Part shown: in pieces, positions 54,644-64,000 of the stretch | How positions within the stretch are numbered: position 1 is the stretch's first letter | How the letters are laid out: each line of letters begins with the position of its first letter | Origin: a virus | Taxonomy: Duplodnaviria; Caudoviricetes | Virus record (IMG/VR): IMGVR_UViG_3300032233_002382 | Location: 160,001 to 224,000 of that record | DNA length: 64,000 nt | Reading direction: 5' to 3' (one strand) | Translations under genes and position numbers: made by a program | Notes under the pieces: generated by a model | What the model saw: only the letters and a program-made list of their open reading frames with translations | Told to the model about the DNA's origin: nothing | Database searches by the model: none

Positions 54644-55333
54644 TTAACCAGCGGTGGGACCACGGGCGAAGAGTAAGGAGCCTGAACCAGCCGGATCATA
54701 CGGGTTGTTGCCGGAGTTCAGTAGATCGCCGTAGTGGGTCGGGTCGAGCTGGTAGTTAGAACCGTCGGTGACATCGGTCGCCATCGCGGCGGCATCTTCC
54801 ATAACGATCGCCGAATCGCTCGGGAATGAAACGCTATAGCTGTTTAACCAACAGCCTAAGAACACAGTGATGATTGCACGGTTCGTCTGGCTGTAGGTAT
54901 CGAGGGGCAGTGTGACACCAGCACCGATTTGGTTCGCGTCAGCCTGCGTAACCAGCTCTGAAAAGACAAGCTCGGATTGAATGTCGAACGGCCACTTGTG
55001 CTGCCGGAGCGACCGGACGATACCGTCGACACCACCCTTATAGCCTAACTCTTGAACAATGCCAGCGGTGTATAAAAGAGTACGGTTCAGCGTTAAAGAC
55101 ATTGGCTCCGTTACGCCGGGCACCAACTCAGCGATCTTATCACCGAAGCCGACGCCGCGTACGGGATCCAGGCCGCGAGACTCGCTATAGTCGAAAGTCG
55201 ACAAAACGCCGACCTGCTTGAAAGAGGTCGAGCCAGCGGGCTTAGATAATACGCGATTCTTCTGCGAAATCGCAACTCGCGTATTAGGGCTAGAACCAAC
55301 TGTGTATATGTAAGTATCTGAGTTTCTGGCCAT
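54644..55333 (-). CDS. Major tail tube protein (229 aa)
   Basis: VGVLSTF...VRGVG...ELVPG...LTLNRTLLY...PFDI...GCWLNSYS...AIVMED motif order of myovirus tube proteins; GAGGTG RBS. Confidence 0.85.
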   Translation of the reverse strand: MARNSDTYIYTVGSSPNTRVAISQKNRVLSKPAGSTSFKQVGVLSTFDYSESRGLDPVRGVGFGDKIAELVPGVTEPMSLTLNRTLLYTAGIVQELGYKGGVDGIVRSLRQHKWPFDIQSELVFSELVTQADANQIGAGVTLPLDTYSQTNRAIITVFLGCWLNSYSVSFPSDSAIVMEDAAAMATDVTDGSNYQLDPTHYGDLLNSGNNPYDPAGSGSLLFARGPTAG

Positions 55334-55379
55334 TTTGCCACCTCTTCTAAAACTTCAGAATAAAAGACGAATAAACGCG

Positions 55380-55769
55380 CTATGACCTAGAGATCCTGCG
55401 CGCTATCTTAACAAAAGACGCTTGCTTGAATTGCACATCGACTTCTGCCGGTTCGATTTCATCTTCCACAACAGGTTTCATGGCAACGCTATCTTTAAGC
55501 AGAGCGTCTTGAGCCCACTGTGTACCAAGCAGGGATTCATCTTTTAAGGGAACATTGCGAGAAATATAGAATACATTACAAATTCTTTTCTTACCATCTA
55601 CAATAATCTCAAAGACTCCCGGACGAAGTTTGGACATCAAAGCTACTTCGTCCGGGACAATCTCTGTTTGCCAATTCTTTCCAGGGTACTTCACGAACGC
55701 AGCCACTCCGGGGACCAATTTGACTCCAGTTACGTACTGGGAATCTTTTTGGGTCGGAATGTGCGCCAT
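55380..55769 (-). CDS. Hypothetical protein (129 aa)
   Basis: ORF coupled to the upstream gene's stop; no family recognised. Confidence 0.65.
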   Translation of the reverse strand: MAHIPTQKDSQYVTGVKLVPGVAAFVKYPGKNWQTEIVPDEVALMSKLRPGVFEIIVDGKKRICNVFYISRNVPLKDESLLGTQWAQDALLKDSVAMKPVVEDEIEPAEVDVQFKQASFVKIARRISRS

Positions 55770-56266
55770 TACTCTTGCTCTGCCTTAGAGTGATGACCCT
55801 TACCGCGAGCAGAGAAGTTATAAGTGTCGGGATCGTTAAGCTTACCGCCACTGTAGAGCTTGTGGACAGCAGATTCGATCTCCTCGAGCGAATGGGCAGA
55901 AAGCTCATCGGCCGTGTCGCATAGAGAGAAGATACCGGCGACCTTCGTCACAAGTCTAGCGATCTGAGGCCGTAAGGAAGCATAGCGCTCCTGATTCGCG
56001 ATATCGACCGCCTTATTCAGACCGGCCATAATGCTCATCACGCGAGCATAGTTCTTGGCCGGGACGGCGGCAGCCTGGTGCAACCGGGCGATTTCCTTCT
56101 TGACTCCGGAAAGGTCTACATCGCTGGAGGACACTCGAGTCATCGACTCAATGTCTGACACGACTGAAGCGACCTTCGGGTCGAGAGGGTTTAGCTTCGA
56201 AAGGGTGCCGATCGCGGCGGCTAATCTACGGGTATTCATAAAGCTCTCCATGGTTATGACCTTCAT
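55769..56266 (-). CDS. Hypothetical helical protein (165 aa; start may be a downstream Met)
   Basis: Co-oriented ORF, Ala-rich helices. Confidence 0.65.
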   Translation of the reverse strand: MKVITMESFMNTRRLAAAIGTLSKLNPLDPKVASVVSDIESMTRVSSSDVDLSGVKKEIARLHQAAAVPAKNYARVMSIMAGLNKAVDIANQERYASLRPQIARLVTKVAGIFSLCDTADELSAHSLEEIESAVHKLYSGGKLNDPDTYNFSARGKGHHSKAEQE

Positions 56267-56286
56267 GTGGACCGACTATGAAGATC

Positions 56287-56589
56287 TTATTGATCGGACC
56301 TAGACTGTCTAATATATCCTATAGTATTCAGACGACGTGTGATTCGAGACTCTCCTTCAGTCTTCATGAAATTGGAGAATCTAGTCGCACCGTCGATGAA
56401 GGCTTCCTCAGGATATAGTACGCCCTCCGAGTCGTTCGTATTCATTAAAACTAACGACTCCTGGGGTCCTTCCTGCACTTTATGGTCGATCTTCATAACC
56501 AGACTATAACCGAGAGGATTAAGTATCTGTCGATTTATCTCGAAAAGTAGGCCAGATTCCTGGAGCTTCTTTAAAGGCACATGATTCAT
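56287..56589 (-). CDS. Small phage-type hypothetical protein (100 aa)
   Basis: LQESGLLFEINRQILNPLGYSL resembles a recurrent small phage protein family (from memory, not searched). Confidence 0.6.
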   Translation of the reverse strand: MNHVPLKKLQESGLLFEINRQILNPLGYSLVMKIDHKVQEGPQESLVLMNTNDSEGVLYPEEAFIDGATRFSNFMKTEGESRITRRLNTIGYIRQSRSDQ

Positions 56590-56601
56590 ATGGTACTATA
56601 C

Positions 56602-57807
56602 TCAGTACTGGTCTTTGACTACTTCTAGTACGCTATTCGCCAGATTTGTTATTTCCTCTACAGTTTCTTTTCCAAGTCTTCTCTTATAGCGTTTTAGAGT
56701 CGATAAAAGCTCATCATGTGCATCTGCATATGCCGTCACGGAGTCATCCCAGTCGGAAGTATCTTCATTCCGAACCAATGCGGCAATTGAATTGTTATAT
56801 TCTTTTATGGTTTCATCAAGGACAGAACGAATCTTAGTTACGAAATCTTCCGGATCGACATACTTCCCGGCAAGTTTACGGTCTAGATTTTGGAAATTTT
56901 TCCGAAGAACAGTCTCCGAAGGCTTACTACCATCCTTGTAAGCCTTGATGCTATCATTATAGTCTGAAACCACTTCCTTTAGTGGCGATCCGTCGAATTC
57001 ATCATCGTCTTCTTTAGCGTCTTCGCCTTGATCATTTTCAGAATCGCCCCAATCGAAATCGTCAGATTCTATGGATTCCACAATAGCTTTAGTAAATTTT
57101 TCCGGTTTATCGAACACGCTTGAGTCGAGGTTTAGTTCTGCGAATTCCTTCATGGCGGTTTCGGCATGCGTATCTTCTATAGTATCAGCTTTATCAATTA
57201 GTTCCTTTATGTAGCGCTGTATCTCAGGCATTTTGCCTGATAAGGCAGTGTTAAAATTTTTCTTCTTTGCGACGTTTTTCTCTCCTAGGTTAGTATTAGA
57301 AAGCGCCTTGATCGCCGCGTCTGGGTCCATATTTTCTGGATCCGTCCTCATCAATGAGTTCACTCGATCATAGTCAAGGGCTTCAAATACTCCAGGATTA
57401 TCTTTAATATACTTAATTATAATCTTGGCTAATTCGCCGCTACCATCTTGATCAAGCCCATCCTTGATATATTCTGAAGGTCTTTGGAGTTTTTGATTCA
57501 AAGTATTCCAAGCTTTTTCGGCGTTTTTAAGCTGTTTCTTGTACGAATCAATGCGAGCCCGCTTATTTAACCATTCCTGGAATGCTTGCTCTTTATCGCG
57601 ATACCACTCCTTTGCACCACCAGTCAGGTCCTTTTTAAACGCTTTCCCAAGTTTATCTTTTAAACCACCCCAATCAATTGCTTGCTTTTCAATAGATCCG
57701 ATTATAAATTGCAAATCGGAAGCGACAGCATGCCGGGATGGTGCGTCAGAACCATCAATATAATTCGCGAGACGAATACATACCTGGGCAGTATTGATAG
57801 GATCCAT
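56602..57807 (-). CDS. Leader-bearing acidic/charged protein A (401 aa)
   Basis: Starts with the shared 40-aa leader; K/D/E-rich helical body with an acidic linker. Confidence 0.85.
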   Translation of the reverse strand: MDPINTAQVCIRLANYIDGSDAPSRHAVASDLQFIIGSIEKQAIDWGGLKDKLGKAFKKDLTGGAKEWYRDKEQAFQEWLNKRARIDSYKKQLKNAEKAWNTLNQKLQRPSEYIKDGLDQDGSGELAKIIIKYIKDNPGVFEALDYDRVNSLMRTDPENMDPDAAIKALSNTNLGEKNVAKKKNFNTALSGKMPEIQRYIKELIDKADTIEDTHAETAMKEFAELNLDSSVFDKPEKFTKAIVESIESDDFDWGDSENDQGEDAKEDDDEFDGSPLKEVVSDYNDSIKAYKDGSKPSETVLRKNFQNLDRKLAGKYVDPEDFVTKIRSVLDETIKEYNNSIAALVRNEDTSDWDDSVTAYADAHDELLSTLKRYKRRLGKETVEEITNLANSVLEVVKDQY

Positions 57808-57868
57808 ACATATCCTGATATATTCAAAATTTAGAACGGAAATTCTTCTGCGTGTACTTTAACCAAAT

Positions 57869-58201
57869 ATGGATAATATAATTAGACCTTACCGATATTT
57901 CATTCAAAAGGGCGAAGCATACTGCCCGAAATGTGGTAAGGGACTCGGAGAGGAGCGTCGGCTCGAGCGAACAGTATGTCACGGGGGTTGGTTTAGAAAA
58001 TGCCCCAAAGATGAACATTTCCACCACAAATGCCGACATTGTAGTGGTCAATGGCTAGAAAGCACCATGGAGATGCACGAGAGGGAAGTGAAATTTACCA
58101 TAAAGAATATGGTCGAAATAGCTATGAAAAGCTCCATGACATCTGAAGAAATCAAGAATTATATCGACGAACTGGTAGTGAAGTCGGTCATGGAAAGTTA
58201 G
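57869..58201 (+). CDS. Cys/His-rich zinc-finger-like protein (110 aa)
   Basis: CPKC...C-x7-CPKDEHFHHKCRHC; overlaps the convergent stop of 58198..59193 by 4 nt. Confidence 0.7.
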   Translation: MDNIIRPYRYFIQKGEAYCPKCGKGLGEERRLERTVCHGGWFRKCPKDEHFHHKCRHCSGQWLESTMEMHEREVKFTIKNMVEIAMKSSMTSEEIKNYIDELVVKSVMES

Positions 58202-59193
58202 TTATAAGTTCGCTTCTTTAAGCGTACGTAGTCAGGTACGGAGATAAAGAAATCTCCTTTCTTATTGTATCCATAATCTACGTCCATATACCGAAGCACT
58301 TCCACAACCTCATCATCGGGTTTCTTCTTTAATTTCACCCATTCATCTTTATCATCTGGATACGGCGGATTAGCGTTTACATCTAGATATTCTTTAAGAA
58401 TTTCGTCGCGACTCTTCCCCGTTGGTTCTTCATAGTCTTCTTCTGATTCATACCGATCTTCAGTCGGTTCCGGACGCTCGGATCGGTCACTGCGATCGGA
58501 CTCGGAACCACTACCCTCCTGAGGCTCCGGCTCATCGCGGTGCGGAGCCATCTTAGATTCCTCGACGTCTGGCTCCTTATCCAGGCTTTCTAGCTGCTCC
58601 TTGGCATTTTCATACTTATAATAATTTGATTCTAATGCTCTATTGACAGCCTGGTAGTAGTTTTTAATCGTAATGAGTATGCTCTTTAATTCCTTTAGGA
58701 TTTTATCTTTCGTATATTTGTTTTTCTTGTCGGAGATATGAACTACCCATTTCTTCCATCCTGCTTTAAAATCGGCGTCCGATTGCCAGTCTTCCATCTT
58801 ACTTAACAATCCCTTAAGCGGATACAGCCTTTTATAATTTAATTTGGTATTTGCATACAACATAGGTAGGATCTTGAACTGCTCAGCAGGAATATCACCG
58901 AGTTTGTCCCCCTTACCCTCAAGGAACTTCCCCTTAACTAACCAATCAAACAGTTTTTTGAGCTGACCGGGTTGTTTGTTAAGATACTCATATTCACGCT
59001 TCAGCTCGTTTAAGCGTTTCTTTAAACTCTCACGAGAGTCCTCATCGGAAGCATGCTTACGGACCGACCCTGATTCAATACCCTTTATGAGCGATATTAA
59101 CTCGGCAGATACCTTCACACGACTTGGACGATCAGAGCTATCTATGATATTCGCAAGATGTAAGCAATAGCTGGAAACCTGATCAGGCGTCAT
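58198..59193 (-). CDS. Leader-bearing charged protein B (331 aa)
   Basis: Shared leader; KAGWKKW core; acidic low-complexity linker. Confidence 0.85.
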   Translation of the reverse strand: MTPDQVSSYCLHLANIIDSSDRPSRVKVSAELISLIKGIESGSVRKHASDEDSRESLKKRLNELKREYEYLNKQPGQLKKLFDWLVKGKFLEGKGDKLGDIPAEQFKILPMLYANTKLNYKRLYPLKGLLSKMEDWQSDADFKAGWKKWVVHISDKKNKYTKDKILKELKSILITIKNYYQAVNRALESNYYKYENAKEQLESLDKEPDVEESKMAPHRDEPEPQEGSGSESDRSDRSERPEPTEDRYESEEDYEEPTGKSRDEILKEYLDVNANPPYPDDKDEWVKLKKKPDDEVVEVLRYMDVDYGYNKKGDFFISVPDYVRLKKRTYN

Positions 59194-59196
59194 AAT

Positions 59197-60363
59197 TTAG
59201 CCTCTGAGTGTGATAAAACGGCGAGTAAGTCTTCGCTTGCTCGCCCTCTTACCTATATATTTTCCACTCTTATCATACGATTTGGACCACTCCATTTCCT
59301 GCCGAGCCATATCGAAACGCACCCTGAGTCGTCTTATATCGTCGACCCGGAACACATAGTACCGCTGACCATCTATATATTTTAACTTAAATGGACGTCT
59401 GAGATCGTTCATAAATCTGAGGAAATCGTCATCAACATACTCGGCTACATATCTTATTGTCTGGTTATCGCTGCTAATCGCACCAGGCGGATTCTTATCG
59501 GGGTTGAAGAAATCGTTTAATATCGCGAATTGCTTCTTCGTGAATTGCTTAGACGATTCTGAATCTCCGTCATCCCGAGGCTTCTTGGACGGTTTTTGAT
59601 CATATGAATCATCGGGCTTAGAGCGTTCTTGTAATTCAGACTTTTCTTTATTATCCTGGCCAGACGGTTTTTTATTCGTAGGCTCAGGTTCGTCACCTGG
59701 GAATGGTTTTAACTTCGTCTTTTGATCCTTAGTATCCTTTTTCTTTTTTAGCTTCACTCCCTGCGATTTAAGCATTTCTTCCGCTGCCGCCATGTTGTCC
59801 TGGACAAATTCCTCATATAAATCGATAGTGCGGAGTATTGCACTAAACTCCCGCTTAAAGGCTTTGTCTATTGGTTTATTGCCCTCAAAATAATGATTAC
59901 TATCGACATAGTCACACCACTTCTTCCATCCTGCCTTCATCTTTGAGAAAGTATTCCATCTAAAAATATCTTGTAAAGGAGAACCCCAGGACAACGGAAA
60001 GCTTTTAGAGACCGGAGAATTCGAACTATATAGATATACTAGAAAGTTTGCCACATCATCCGGCATGTCACCGTAATCATCTACCCAAGTATAATCAGAG
60101 AGCCACTTCCTGGTCGTATCAACGAGATCGATACGTTTCTCGTACTTCTCGAGAAGATCAATCAGATGCTGCTGTTCGGGTGTAGGCTTACGTTTAAAAA
60201 GATCTCGGAAATTGAAAGCAAAATGGGTGGTCGGAGCCCCAGATTCGAGTAAATATATTATAGCGCGTATATCAGAAGAAATAGATATCCTACTCGGGGA
60301 TGCCGAACCGTCGATTTCATCGGCGATGTATTTTAGCAGTGACGAAACTTCACTTGGATGCAT
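59197..60363 (-). CDS. Leader-bearing charged protein C (388 aa), paralog of B
   Basis: Shared leader; KAGWKKW core; NPP motif shared with B. Confidence 0.85.
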   Translation of the reverse strand: MHPSEVSSLLKYIADEIDGSASPSRISISSDIRAIIYLLESGAPTTHFAFNFRDLFKRKPTPEQQHLIDLLEKYEKRIDLVDTTRKWLSDYTWVDDYGDMPDDVANFLVYLYSSNSPVSKSFPLSWGSPLQDIFRWNTFSKMKAGWKKWCDYVDSNHYFEGNKPIDKAFKREFSAILRTIDLYEEFVQDNMAAAEEMLKSQGVKLKKKKDTKDQKTKLKPFPGDEPEPTNKKPSGQDNKEKSELQERSKPDDSYDQKPSKKPRDDGDSESSKQFTKKQFAILNDFFNPDKNPPGAISSDNQTIRYVAEYVDDDFLRFMNDLRRPFKLKYIDGQRYYVFRVDDIRRLRVRFDMARQEMEWSKSYDKSGKYIGKRASKRRLTRRFITLRG

Positions 60364-60413
60364 GATGTCCCCGGAAATTCCCCGAAACGAACGTAATCAC
60401 ATGGGGATAAGGC

Positions 60414-61331
60414 ATGAAAGCACTAGCGATATCGAATTTTCCCGTACATTTTAACGAGAGTAAAATTCGACCCGAATTCACAAGACGTGGATTCGATGAT
60501 GTGGAATTCATAAGCACCAGCAGAGTCCGGAGTCTTTCCAGAAAGTCTCTGGACGAACGAGACAGAGTCTTTCTATTCTGCGACATGCTGGGACACAGCG
60601 ACTACTACGCCATAAGAGACTACCTTAAAAAATCCGGAAAGAGGCTCGAATTACTTAACCGGAAGTCGTCGTCTTGGGAAATTGAATCAAAGGAGACAGT
60701 CTTGCCACCCGCCAAATCGGTAAATCCAGAGAGTCTTCCCTCATTAATAAGGGACTTCGACCTCTTAATGTCGAAGGGTACGACCGAGAGTGTTATTTTG
60801 AAGACTCTGTCAAAATACTGGACAGCGCGACCTCTTAACAATTTTGCCCAGTTGGTTAACTACGTTGAACGCTATAGACCAACGGTTGAGATTCCGGAAC
60901 TCAAACCGACTGATTTTGATAGAGCGATTAAAGAGGATCAATCGGCAGTAACTAAGGAAGAGCGCGACGAGCCAACTGAATTCCCGGTAGGAGAAGAAAA
61001 ATCATATCAAGAATTACTAGATATGACTAAATTTCTTGAAGAATATAATTCGGAATGCAACGGTAAGCTAAAAAGGGCCGAATCAGACCTGCTGGCGCTG
61101 AGAGCTGAAATCACCGAGTTACGCAAGCAAAATACTGAGCTTACAGGTGAAGTTCTTAAATCAAAACAAAGCTTGGGAATTGGTGGCACCACATCCTTGG
61201 TCGATCTACCGAATCTTGCTAATTCGAAGTCAGCTGCCGTTGCCATAAAGACTTTGGTCGAACTTCGCGTGCTTAGCCCCGAAGAAGGCCTTGAGAAGAT
61301 CATCAAAAGTATTCTTATGGTCGAAGTGTAA
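60414..61331 (+). CDS. Hypothetical protein, DUF2325-like N-terminus plus coiled coil (305 aa)
   Basis: VFLFCDMLGHSDYYAIRDYLKKSGK resembles DUF2325 proteins; heptads in LKRAESDLLALRAEITELRKQNTEL. Confidence 0.55.
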   Translation: MKALAISNFPVHFNESKIRPEFTRRGFDDVEFISTSRVRSLSRKSLDERDRVFLFCDMLGHSDYYAIRDYLKKSGKRLELLNRKSSSWEIESKETVLPPAKSVNPESLPSLIRDFDLLMSKGTTESVILKTLSKYWTARPLNNFAQLVNYVERYRPTVEIPELKPTDFDRAIKEDQSAVTKEERDEPTEFPVGEEKSYQELLDMTKFLEEYNSECNGKLKRAESDLLALRAEITELRKQNTELTGEVLKSKQSLGIGGTTSLVDLPNLANSKSAAVAIKTLVELRVLSPEEGLEKIIKSILMVEV

Positions 61332-61346
61332 ACTAGTGTGGAGGGT

Positions 61347-61877
61347 ATGAACATGATTAACAAGACATTAATAATCACGCACGTTAATTCCGAAACCAAC
61401 CATATCGTAGCTTTAGACGGAGAAGCAAAGACTGCTTACGGTCTTTACGTCGCCGACGCTAAGGACAGCGTTGGAAAGTCAATTACGATTCAAACCGCAA
61501 AGCCTAAATCAATTTCGGAATGCCCTAGCAAGTTCTATAACGCATACAGAATATCAGAAATGTTTGGTCCTTACGAATCTGAATGGAAGTATGCTGAGAT
61601 AGACGAGAACTCAGTGATATTCGTTGGAGAAGTACCCTTTCGGCAGATTCCGCTAAGTGTTCAAGAAAAGCGGGAGTTGCTGCTCGATAAAGTGCAGGTC
61701 GGATCAGTCTGGACGGATGGTAAGAAGCATTGGTGTGTTCGTGATAAATGCGTCGAGACCCTGGCTGGGAATAGCAAGCTCCGGATATGGATTACCGACC
61801 TGCTAGGCAAGCATGGTCAGGCAATTTATGCCACTAGCTTAATCGATAAATACACGATCGTGACATTTCAGCAGTAA
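61347..61877 (+). CDS. Hypothetical protein (~176 aa)
   Basis: ATG 61347 preceded by GGAGG; follows 60414..61331. Confidence 0.7.
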   Translation: MNMINKTLIITHVNSETNHIVALDGEAKTAYGLYVADAKDSVGKSITIQTAKPKSISECPSKFYNAYRISEMFGPYESEWKYAEIDENSVIFVGEVPFRQIPLSVQEKRELLLDKVQVGSVWTDGKKHWCVRDKCVETLAGNSKLRIWITDLLGKHGQAIYATSLIDKYTIVTFQQ

Positions 61878-61925
61878 ATACACATCGGCCCCCATCATTC
61901 AAATGATGGGGGCCGATGTGTATTT
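61876..61925. terminator. Perfect 24-bp inverted repeat between convergent genes (likely bidirectional terminator)
   Basis: AAATACACATCGGCCCCCATCATT-CA-AATGATGGGGGCCGATGTGTATTT fills the gap between the + strand stop at 61877 and the sheath stop at 61929. Confidence 0.7.
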
Positions 61926-61928
61926 GAA

Positions 61929-64000
61929 CTAGGTGCGGATGCGAATGCTAAGGGTCACGACGATGTACTCGAGTGGGAACACCGGAACGTAAATGGCTTC
62001 CACGCGAAGAATGGTCGGGTCCTTCTCATCGACGGTAGCCGCAATCCCAGCGACTTTGTTAACAATCTGAGCCGAAATTAGATTGTTAAAGAGTGCAGTT
62101 ACGGCCTTCTCGACCTGGCCAGGGATGGAGGGGAGGAACTTCTGGCCGATGAACGGGTCGAGAGTAGCGCGGATCTGCTGCTGCACGTACTGGATTGTCA
62201 GCGTCACAGACGGCGTACGGGTGATCACTGAATTCGTGTTAGTGGTTAGACCGTGGCGAACTCGTAGATTTCCGAGATCGAGCTGCTCGACTACCGTCAC
62301 GCCCGATACCGCGACCTGATTTGCAGTGGTCGGGTCTAGATTACGACCGACCTGCTTGAAGCCCGTAATGCTTCGGCGGGTCCAAGGGGTAGCGACATCC
62401 ACGGACGGGGCACAAGTCGAAGCGGCTAGAGCAGCCGCCATATAAACGCCGCTTACCAAACGGTCGGAGACGTTACCGAGATTATCGGAAACGGTCACGA
62501 CGTAGGAGTCCGGGTAGACAACAGACATTAAGCTGCTGTTGATACCCTTTGCAATTGCCTGAACTCCCGTTGGGGTAGTGCCAACCTCAACGCCGACGAG
62601 ACCGGTGCGCTCACCCTCTTGGCGCGGAGTGCTCATGAAGGTGACGTGGTTTGTCAGATAAGCGGCGACCGGTGGGGCTCCGGTGAGTGGAACAATGATG
62701 TCAGGCTTTATGTTTCCACTGATCGGCTTCTTAAGTTCGTCGATAGCAGCTATGTAAGCGGCGTTAGAAGCGACCGGAGAATTCGGAAGCTTTAACACCT
62801 GCTTCAGACCTACGACAACCGCGCCATTGAGAATGGCTAGACGAGCCGCTAAGCTCAGCGGGTTATCAGGGGTCGGATCGCCGAAGTTCGCCTGAATCTT
62901 CTTCAGGTCCGTGTAGAGAGCTGTCGATAGATCTGACTTAAGGTACTCGTAGCTGATGTAGTAGTAATCACCAACGTTCGGTACATTGCCGGTGCTCTTA
63001 TAAGTCTTGACCAGGCCGGTTGTACCGGCGGTGATGCCGACCGTGTTGCTCACGGTCAGCTCAACACCGTTCACCGCGAGAGTCGGAACAGCCGAATCAC
63101 AAAGGAACGTGCTGCTGCAGACTAACGTGAAGCTGCCGCCTGAAGTGTAATCCCCTGTCTGCGGAGCTAAGATCGTGAACCGGAGTCCAGTACGACCGTC
63201 GGTATACGTCTGGCCAACTTGACCAACACCAGAGGAACCAGCATTCAGGTCGGAACTCGACACTGCATAACCGGAGATAGCGTCCTCTCCTTCATCCGCA
63301 GTGTCATTACCAATGCCGATACCGGTATCATCGATGAACACCGTGTCACTAATGGCATCGCTGAAGCTCAGCGAGGAGACGATTCCCGCAGACTTCGAGT
63401 TGATCTTCAGGAACGTGCCCTGACCCGTTACAGTCTCTGGGTAAGCGACTGCTAAACCAGAGAAAGTGGCATCAGCATTCAAAGCCGCTGCGATCTTGCT
63501 GGCGTCGGGTTGAACCCGATTCGTGGTCTTGGCAGTAAGCCCTAAGACTGACAGAGCAGTACTTCCAGAGGCCGCATTCTTAACCGTAACAGCAGACTTC
63601 ACGGTGTTAGTCAGTGAGCTAATTACCACCTTAGCCAAAGTCGGATCAGCGACGTCAGCGTTAGCGCCTGCACCAACGGTAGCTGGCAGACCAGATGTAC
63701 TGGTTAGAGCCACTGAGGTGTTCGTCGTATCATTTCGACCATGGACGTGGAACGGAGTGATTTGCTCATCACGGTGAGCGTTGAAAGCTCCGTTAGTGCT
63801 GAGGTAAGCAAGCGCCTCAGTTAAAGCGATGGTGCTTTCGAACAGAGGACCATTAGATCCGGACGCGTCACTTACTGTGACCGGATTCGTCGTGTCTGAA
63901 ACCACGTGAACCGAAGCCTGGCTTAAGTGGCTATTGAATTTCGCCTTTATCTGGTTCGCTAACGCAGCTCCAGTCGATAAGCTGTCGGTAGTCACCGTGA
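61929..64000 (-). CDS. Tail sheath protein, 5' part outside the window
   Basis: C-terminal sheath signature (RVRHGLTT...YVQQQIRATLDPFIG...DPTILRVEAIYVPVFPLEYIVV); frame is open to 64000, so the GTG at 63995 is probably internal. Confidence 0.9.
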   Translation of the reverse strand, partial: TVTTDSLSTGAALANQIKAKFNSHLSQASVHVVSDTTNPVTVSDASGSNGPLFESTIALTEALAYLSTNGAFNAHRDEQITPFHVHGRNDTTNTSVALTSTSGLPATVGAGANADVADPTLAKVVISSLTNTVKSAVTVKNAASGSTALSVLGLTAKTTNRVQPDASKIAAALNADATFSGLAVAYPETVTGQGTFLKINSKSAGIVSSLSFSDAISDTVFIDDTGIGIGNDTADEGEDAISGYAVSSSDLNAGSSGVGQVGQTYTDGRTGLRFTILAPQTGDYTSGGSFTLVCSSTFLCDSAVPTLAVNGVELTVSNTVGITAGTTGLVKTYKSTGNVPNVGDYYYISYEYLKSDLSTALYTDLKKIQANFGDPTPDNPLSLAARLAILNGAVVVGLKQVLKLPNSPVASNAAYIAAIDELKKPISGNIKPDIIVPLTGAPPVAAYLTNHVTFMSTPRQEGERTGLVGVEVGTTPTGVQAIAKGINSSLMSVVYPDSYVVTVSDNLGNVSDRLVSGVYMAAALAASTCAPSVDVATPWTRRSITGFKQVGRNLDPTTANQVAVSGVTVVEQLDLGNLRVRHGLTTNTNSVITRTPSVTLTIQYVQQQIRATLDPFIGQKFLPSIPGQVEKAVTALFNNLISAQIVNKVAGIAATVDEKDPTILRVEAIYVPVFPLEYIVVTLSIRIRT

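Follow-up and report, generated by a model that had tools for sequence, protein, structure and literature searches.

Three proteins encoded between the tail sheath gene and the probable tail tube gene of an uncultured phage begin alike. What is this common start, and where could it send the proteins that carry it? The locus lies within 64,000 nucleotides of phage DNA (the window), bases 160001–224000 of one 307,777-bp viral contig (IMG/VR record IMGVR_UViG_3300032233_002382) that is about 72% complete by the CheckV estimate. Coordinates are those of the window unless marked as genome positions, which refer to the whole contig. The three open reading frames (ORFs) are on the minus strand and are referred to as A (56602–57807, 401 amino acids (aa)), B (58198–59193, 331 aa) and C (59197–60363, 388 aa). 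A first-pass annotation, made from the letters alone, had taken their shared start for a leader that loads variable cargo into the head or tail lumen and is possibly cleaved there. Our comparisons indicate that it is an undescribed module, predicted to form two helices, which belongs to one clade of uncultured huge phages and is fused to more than 100 unrelated small proteins.

A shared module on unrelated bodies

The MAFFT alignment of the three proteins is gapless over residues 1–40, and the 11 invariant positions are precisely those listed in the first-pass annotation: M1, P3, A14, I17, D18, S20, P23, S24, R25, I36 and E40. The module itself spans residues 1–39, at 57691..57807 in A, 59077..59193 in B and 60247..60363 in C. 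The earlier description of the remaining protein, or body, also stands. After removal of the module, the A body (residues 40–401, 56602..57690), which is rich in Lys, Asp and Glu, is unrelated to the other two by sequence comparison, while the bodies of B (58198..59076) and C (59197..60246) are paralogous (phmmer 2e-10; BLASTP 24.5% over 204 aa, E 7e-7). None of the three proteins matches a Pfam, PHROG or NCBIfam family. For the A body, and for the C body apart from its paralog in B, no homolog was found among 5.8 billion proteins, and the ESM Atlas held no usable look-alike.

The module is not confined to A, B and C. A profile of their residues 1–42, searched against the 5,120 six-frame ORFs of the contig, detected seven further module proteins, each match starting exactly at a methionine. 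After one iteration, ten copies scored at E ≤ 1.6e-17, with the next ORF at 0.13. One of the ten is internal, at residues 97–135 of a 255-aa protein; it is placed there because the ORF runs 96 residues upstream and this extension is conserved in a metagenomic homolog (47% identity over the full length). Among the bodies of the ten carriers, only those of B and C are related. A second profile, made from 111 modules of which none comes from this genome, recovers all ten copies in the same ORF set. It finds the seven canonical copies at 1e-20 to 3e-14, C at 3.7e-9, B at 2e-6 and A at 8.4e-6, and the next ORF at 0.85. A, B and C are therefore genuine, if divergent, members of the family.

Where two copies in the genome share an identical residue, the codons differ in 500 cases and agree in 255. 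Since codons differ twice as often as they agree, it is the peptide that is under selection, and the copies do not constitute a DNA repeat. An origin as a DNA repeat or recombination cassette was considered and rejected, as synonymous sites are saturated and the longest common nucleotide run is 12 nt.

Across 120 modules, mean column identity is 60%. Positions M1, P3, L10, I13, A14, I17, S20, P23, V28, D31 and L32 are near-invariant, and polar residues are strongly preferred at R11, R12, D/E18, K21, N22, R25, K/R33 and R/K34, as well as at D31. Conservation stops at residue 39, beyond which the composition is linker-like. We modeled the B module with AlphaFold2 from the 120-module alignment. 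The model, with a predicted local distance difference test (pLDDT) score of 96.4, has a helix at residues 3–19, a loop at 20–24 and a second helix at 25–38, the two antiparallel helices being joined by the conserved loop D/E-x-S-K-N-P-S-R. The module is thus confidently predicted to fold as a helix-loop-helix, which argues against the view of it as a disordered signal.

Canonical modules are basic, with a net charge of +2 to +6. The modules of A, B and C keep the core positions P3, A14, I17, S20, P23, V/I28, D/E31 and L/I32 and have hydrophobic residues at positions 10 and 13, except for Cys10 in A and B. Their net charges (−2, 0 and −2, respectively) make them outliers among 134 modules, and the basic surface formed by R11, R12, K21 and K/R33–34 is missing. 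The bodies are acidic, with a net charge of −3 or lower in 70% and a mean of −6.8 per 100 aa, versus +0.5 for the small proteins of the genome. They are also small and soluble, only 1 of 130 having a membrane-like segment, and they change rapidly.

Among 1.84 billion cluster representatives, the ten-copy profile found at least 1000 clusters with E ≤ 1e-3, including 181 with E ≤ 1e-10. The anatomy of the metagenomic carriers is described here from the best 150 matches. The motif lies at residue 1 in 134 of these, the median protein length is 136 aa, and 139 module-masked bodies fall into 114 groups without mutual BLASTP similarity. The idea of a modular unit on variable cargo is thus upheld, and the profile search of genome and metagenomes that had been suggested as its check returned many residue-1 matches on unrelated bodies rather than one full-length family. 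A Pfam match was found in only three of the 150 carriers (two to LRV repeats and one weak match to Mu-like_Pro). Twenty of the proteins contain two module copies each, and internal and C-terminal copies mostly lack the starting Met. Several proteins of 88–103 aa consist solely of a module, a Pro/Ala-rich linker and a second module. One metagenomic protein of 298 aa, P0004, has a module at each end and LRV/HEAT-type repeats between them (PF01816, E 2e-32), and so belongs to the three carriers whose body can be recognized.

The locus search in IMG/VR used a tighter alignment, A3, as profile A2 was too degenerate. Contigs with the module range from 62 to 436 kb, and two that have terminal repeats are complete; the larger relatives (193–436 kb) have five to six dispersed copies each. 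The relatives share a 295-aa major capsid protein, encoded here at genome 263152–264039 (L014:9152–10039), that is 89–93% identical among them; sheaths are 53–56% and scaffold-like proteins 60–64% identical. These values suggest unusually strong constraint on the capsid protein. The carriers form one clade of phages of about 300–440 kb with this common capsid protein, approximately 90% identical.

Outside this clade the module was not encountered. A tblastn search of 50,697 GenBank phage records with a canonical module gave chance-level matches only, and LR745208.1, the nearest GenBank relative by sheath, has no copy. One narrow peptide pattern found none in 185,579 prokaryote genomes. Pfam, PHROGs and NCBIfam contain no module family, as judged from A, B and C, the seven other copies of this genome and 150 module proteins. 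Nothing among PDB sequences scored below E 1.5 with the module profile, and Foldseek with the 40-residue model found nothing in the PDB below E 4. The motif strings are not described as a phage motif in the searchable literature, and neither the literature on capsid-targeting signals of huge phages nor recent surveys of huge-phage protein families mention such a tag.

Genomic setting of the module genes

On the minus strand, the gene order around the locus is sheath, C, B, A, three small genes, the probable tube gene, two chaperone-like genes and a 1126-aa tape-measure-like gene; two plus-strand genes separate sheath and C. The tail sheath gene (61929..63995, minus strand; phrog_2839, E 2e-34) is the upstream border of the interval that holds A, B and C. 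Its downstream border (54644..55333, minus strand) encodes a 229-aa protein that is probably the tail tube. This assignment draws on a weak PHROG match, on synteny and 68% identity with its counterpart in relative G003, and on the position of the gene upstream of the chaperone-like and tape-measure genes. B starts 3 nt past the stop of C, and so the two genes probably form one operon. Between A and B, on the plus strand, lies a 110-aa zinc-ribbon-like gene (57869–58201), rich in Cys and His and without a family match, the end of which overlaps the 3′ end of B by 4 nt. Directly 3′ of the tube gene is a terminator-like hairpin with a 17-bp stem (54627–54591, minus strand). A promoter and terminator scan of 54.5–62 kb gave counts at chance level.

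Association with the tail had been suggested by the position of A, B and C between sheath and tube. The sheath–tube interval (55334–61928) is a hypervariable island. In relatives G002 and G003 it holds 11–12 kb of different small genes, with no homolog of A, B or C and no module. The only conserved island genes encode proteins of 165 aa (55769–56266) and 100 aa (56287–56589). Because the interval is variable in relatives, its location offers no argument for a role in the tail, and this part of the earlier proposal falls away.

Five of the ten module genes lie at genome 0–75 kb. There the small genes form a mosaic, roughly 20 in every 10 kb and alternating in strand, unlike genome 160–307 kb, which is one long minus-strand block. 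The motif [GA]ATTTCC[GA] occurs within 120 nt upstream of 5 of the 10 module genes versus 10 of 374 others (Fisher p 1e-5, a post hoc comparison), and may be a common regulatory element. The five sites are upstream of A (~57844), of C (~60379) and of the genes at genome 28309, 35354 and 60879. Three of the five genes also share AACGAG a few bases farther upstream.

The head region carries two module genes. In transcription order it begins with a sigma factor, a module protein, five unknown genes, the large terminase, two small ORFs and the portal. Several unknowns, a protease-like gene, a 444-aa protein, a 228-aa scaffold-like protein, the major capsid protein and a second module protein follow. 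The last of these is directly downstream of the capsid gene, from which it is separated by a GC-rich terminator-like hairpin with a T-rich tail (genome ~263100–263150). In relative G004, the distance from the capsid gene to a downstream module gene is 3.4 kb.

A shorter form of the motif is found in the same setting. In G003, the capsid gene is immediately followed by six small genes in a row that start with the tag M-(M)-N-F/L-x-K/R-IASRIAA, which resembles helix 1 of the module. One protein of relative G001 has both an N-terminal short tag and a full module at residues 267–304. In the present genome, 13 proteins, four of them module proteins, match the pattern M-x(3-5)-[KRHN]-IAS-[RH]-I-[AS] in their first 16 residues, where about 1.3 would be predicted from how often the pattern occurs elsewhere. 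The nine without a module are encoded at genome 11351–11938, 12529–13191, 18717–19424, 31875–32147, 63650–63970, 84446–85372, 152343–152696, 233102–233755 and 246215–247051; L023:4299–6591 is a further listed short-tag location.

Partner, destination and competing explanations

The polar surface of the module is conserved across unrelated bodies, which suggests a common partner. We infer that the module is a docking or address domain that recognizes one conserved partner, a reading to which we give about an even chance. The hairpin would bind this partner and thereby bring the variable bodies to the same place. By likeness to the P22 scaffolding protein or to the T4 capsid-targeting sequence (reviewed in PMC9958956), that place would most likely be the assembling virion. 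Within it the assembling head is the leading candidate, which analogy lets us propose only tentatively. The capsid-adjacent copy, the short tags of G003 and the residues at positions 38 and 40 described below are hints of a link to the head. In A, B and C the basic surface typical of canonical modules has been lost, so these three may bind at another site or pair with basic modules. The fullest form of this reading, possible yet somewhat doubtful, would be a clade-wide addressing system. The 39-residue hairpin and a 12-residue short form would serve to package small effectors of more than 1000 families, mostly acidic and quick to evolve, into the procapsid, from which they would be injected along with the DNA, and the acidic modules of A, B and C would mark a second destination or serve as adaptors.

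Several observations weigh against delivery to the virion. The late, structural block makes up approximately 48% of the contig and holds five of the ten copies, so module genes are not enriched there. Adjacency to the capsid and sheath genes may mean little because accessory genes accumulate in the variable islands that follow both. Known capsid-targeting signals offer no parallel to the internal, C-terminal and tandem copies or to the two-module mini-proteins, and A, B and C lack the basic residues of the putative binding face. The T4-type prohead protease family S77 (PF03420) was not detected in the contig, and no cultured phage among the 50,697 GenBank phage records has the module.

The hairpin could instead be a generic self-association handle that forms dimers or hetero-oligomers through a four-helix bundle and addresses nothing, which we consider unlikely. 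The natural module–linker–module proteins speak for it, and one of them was modeled by AlphaFold2 as four helices (pLDDT 75; predicted template modeling score 0.56). This model aligns with up-and-down four-helix bundles over about 90 columns (Foldseek template modeling score 0.5–0.66), and because its two hairpins pack together, self-association stays alive as an explanation. The presence of acidic (A, B and C) and basic (canonical) subtypes in one genome would also allow charge-complementary pairing. However, the tandem model comes from an alignment of six sequences and is of moderate confidence, and if the handle served dimerization alone, there would be no need for one polar surface to be preserved in over 100 unrelated families. 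Self-association also leaves the confinement to one clade and the near-constant placement at residue 1 unexplained. A complex prediction for two copies of the B module scored 0.02 in a run without controls and weighs neither way on pairing.

Docking on a host machine such as RNA polymerase or the ribosome, or on DNA or RNA, is a less probable explanation still. Here the acidic bodies would act as inhibitors or mimics and nothing would be packaged. The basic charge of the canonical module next to strongly acidic bodies would suit such a function, and half of the copies lie in the 0–75 kb mosaic, a setting typical of accessory or early genes. The copy that follows the sigma-factor gene and the upstream motif shared by five module genes and rare elsewhere, found post hoc, point the same way. 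Against this, Pfam, NCBIfam, PDB sequence and Foldseek searches gave no similarity to known DNA-, RNA- or polymerase-binding domains, and A, B and C have no basic surface.

The reading closest to the first-pass annotation, a T4-like leader cut off by a head protease after an Ala or after E40 inside the head or tail lumen, is the one we regard as very unlikely. It draws support from the end of the module in A, B and C, which reads S-I-E, G-I-E and L-L-E, respectively. Where residue 40 is Glu in the family, residue 38 is Ser, Ala or Gly in 16 of 17 members, versus 55% overall. This pattern resembles the S/A/G-x-E motif of phiKZ-type prohead proteases, and on that likeness a subset of modules may be cleavable. 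The contig has a candidate gene for a head maturation protease at genome 266335–267888 (phrog_18299, E 4e-9); its product has no relative in the PDB, and its protease group also occurs in Tunturiibacter phage Tunturi_5, Bacillus phage G and cluster C mycobacteriophages. However, E40, invariant in A, B and C, is present in only 17 of 129 members (13%), and neither an Ala nor any other cut site is conserved past residue 39, so cleavage after an Ala is not borne out for the family. An Ala does follow the leader within 3–9 residues in A, B and C (KQA, KHA and HFA), as had been reported, but its register varies among the three, and the wider family has no conserved position of this kind. The [KRH]-x-Ala triplet is enriched only at residues 38–40, within helix 2. 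A leader in the strict sense is also at odds with a folded module that exists in internal, C-terminal and tandem copies, most of them without Met, including the copy at residues 97–135 in this genome. The lack of PF03420 and the loss of the sheath–tube position in relatives count against cleavage as well.

Known delivery systems and significance

The scaffolding protein of phage P22 binds coat protein through a basic helix-loop-helix, a property exploited experimentally to fill P22 procapsids with foreign cargo. Our module may be compared with this coat-binding domain at the level of fold class only, both being (by prediction here) basic two-helix hairpins of about 30–40 residues that can take an unrelated protein to a specific site. 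In P22 the domain lies at the C-terminus of a single protein, with one copy per genome, whereas the module has 5–10 copies per genome on unrelated bodies and is acidic in A, B and C. A PDB profile search and Foldseek detected no sequence or structure homology between the two.

The capsid-targeting sequence of the T4 proteins IPI, IPII, IPIII and Alt is about 10 residues long, strictly N-terminal and removed by gp21. The module shares with it an N-terminal peptide common to unrelated phage proteins, and in A, B, C and 13% of family members its x-x-E ending is like that of leaders cut by a protease. It differs in being a 39-residue domain with a predicted fold that is also found internally, C-terminally and in repeats, with no conserved cut site and no detected S77 protease.

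Cargo signals of Photorhabdus virulence cassettes and other extracellular contractile injection systems are disordered N-terminal regions that serve tailocin-like particles without a capsid. The resemblance lies in a common N-terminal region on varied payloads whose genes lie close to those for sheath and tube. In contrast to those systems, the present genome encodes the capsid, portal and terminase of a tailed phage, the module is apparently folded and most of its copies are far from tail genes. MIX, LXG and similar trafficking domains are handles for bacterial secretion systems with known secretion partners. Like these domains of polymorphic toxins and effectors, the module is a conserved N-terminal handle with hypervariable C-terminal bodies and many copies per genome, but it is found in phages only and its tiny acidic bodies lack toxin domains.

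Function is known for only a minority of huge-phage genes, and the module provides a common handle on at least 1000 protein families and on 5–10 genes per genome. Identifying the partner of the hairpin would tell the destination of all proteins that carry it. Even if the hairpin pairs with itself or docks on a host component instead, it would be a new building block that recurs widely in phage proteins and has no entry in Pfam, PHROGs or NCBIfam. Were the virion the destination, these uncultured phages would possess a large, swappable repertoire of injected proteins, and the module would be a natural tag of 39 residues with which cargo could be brought into large capsids.

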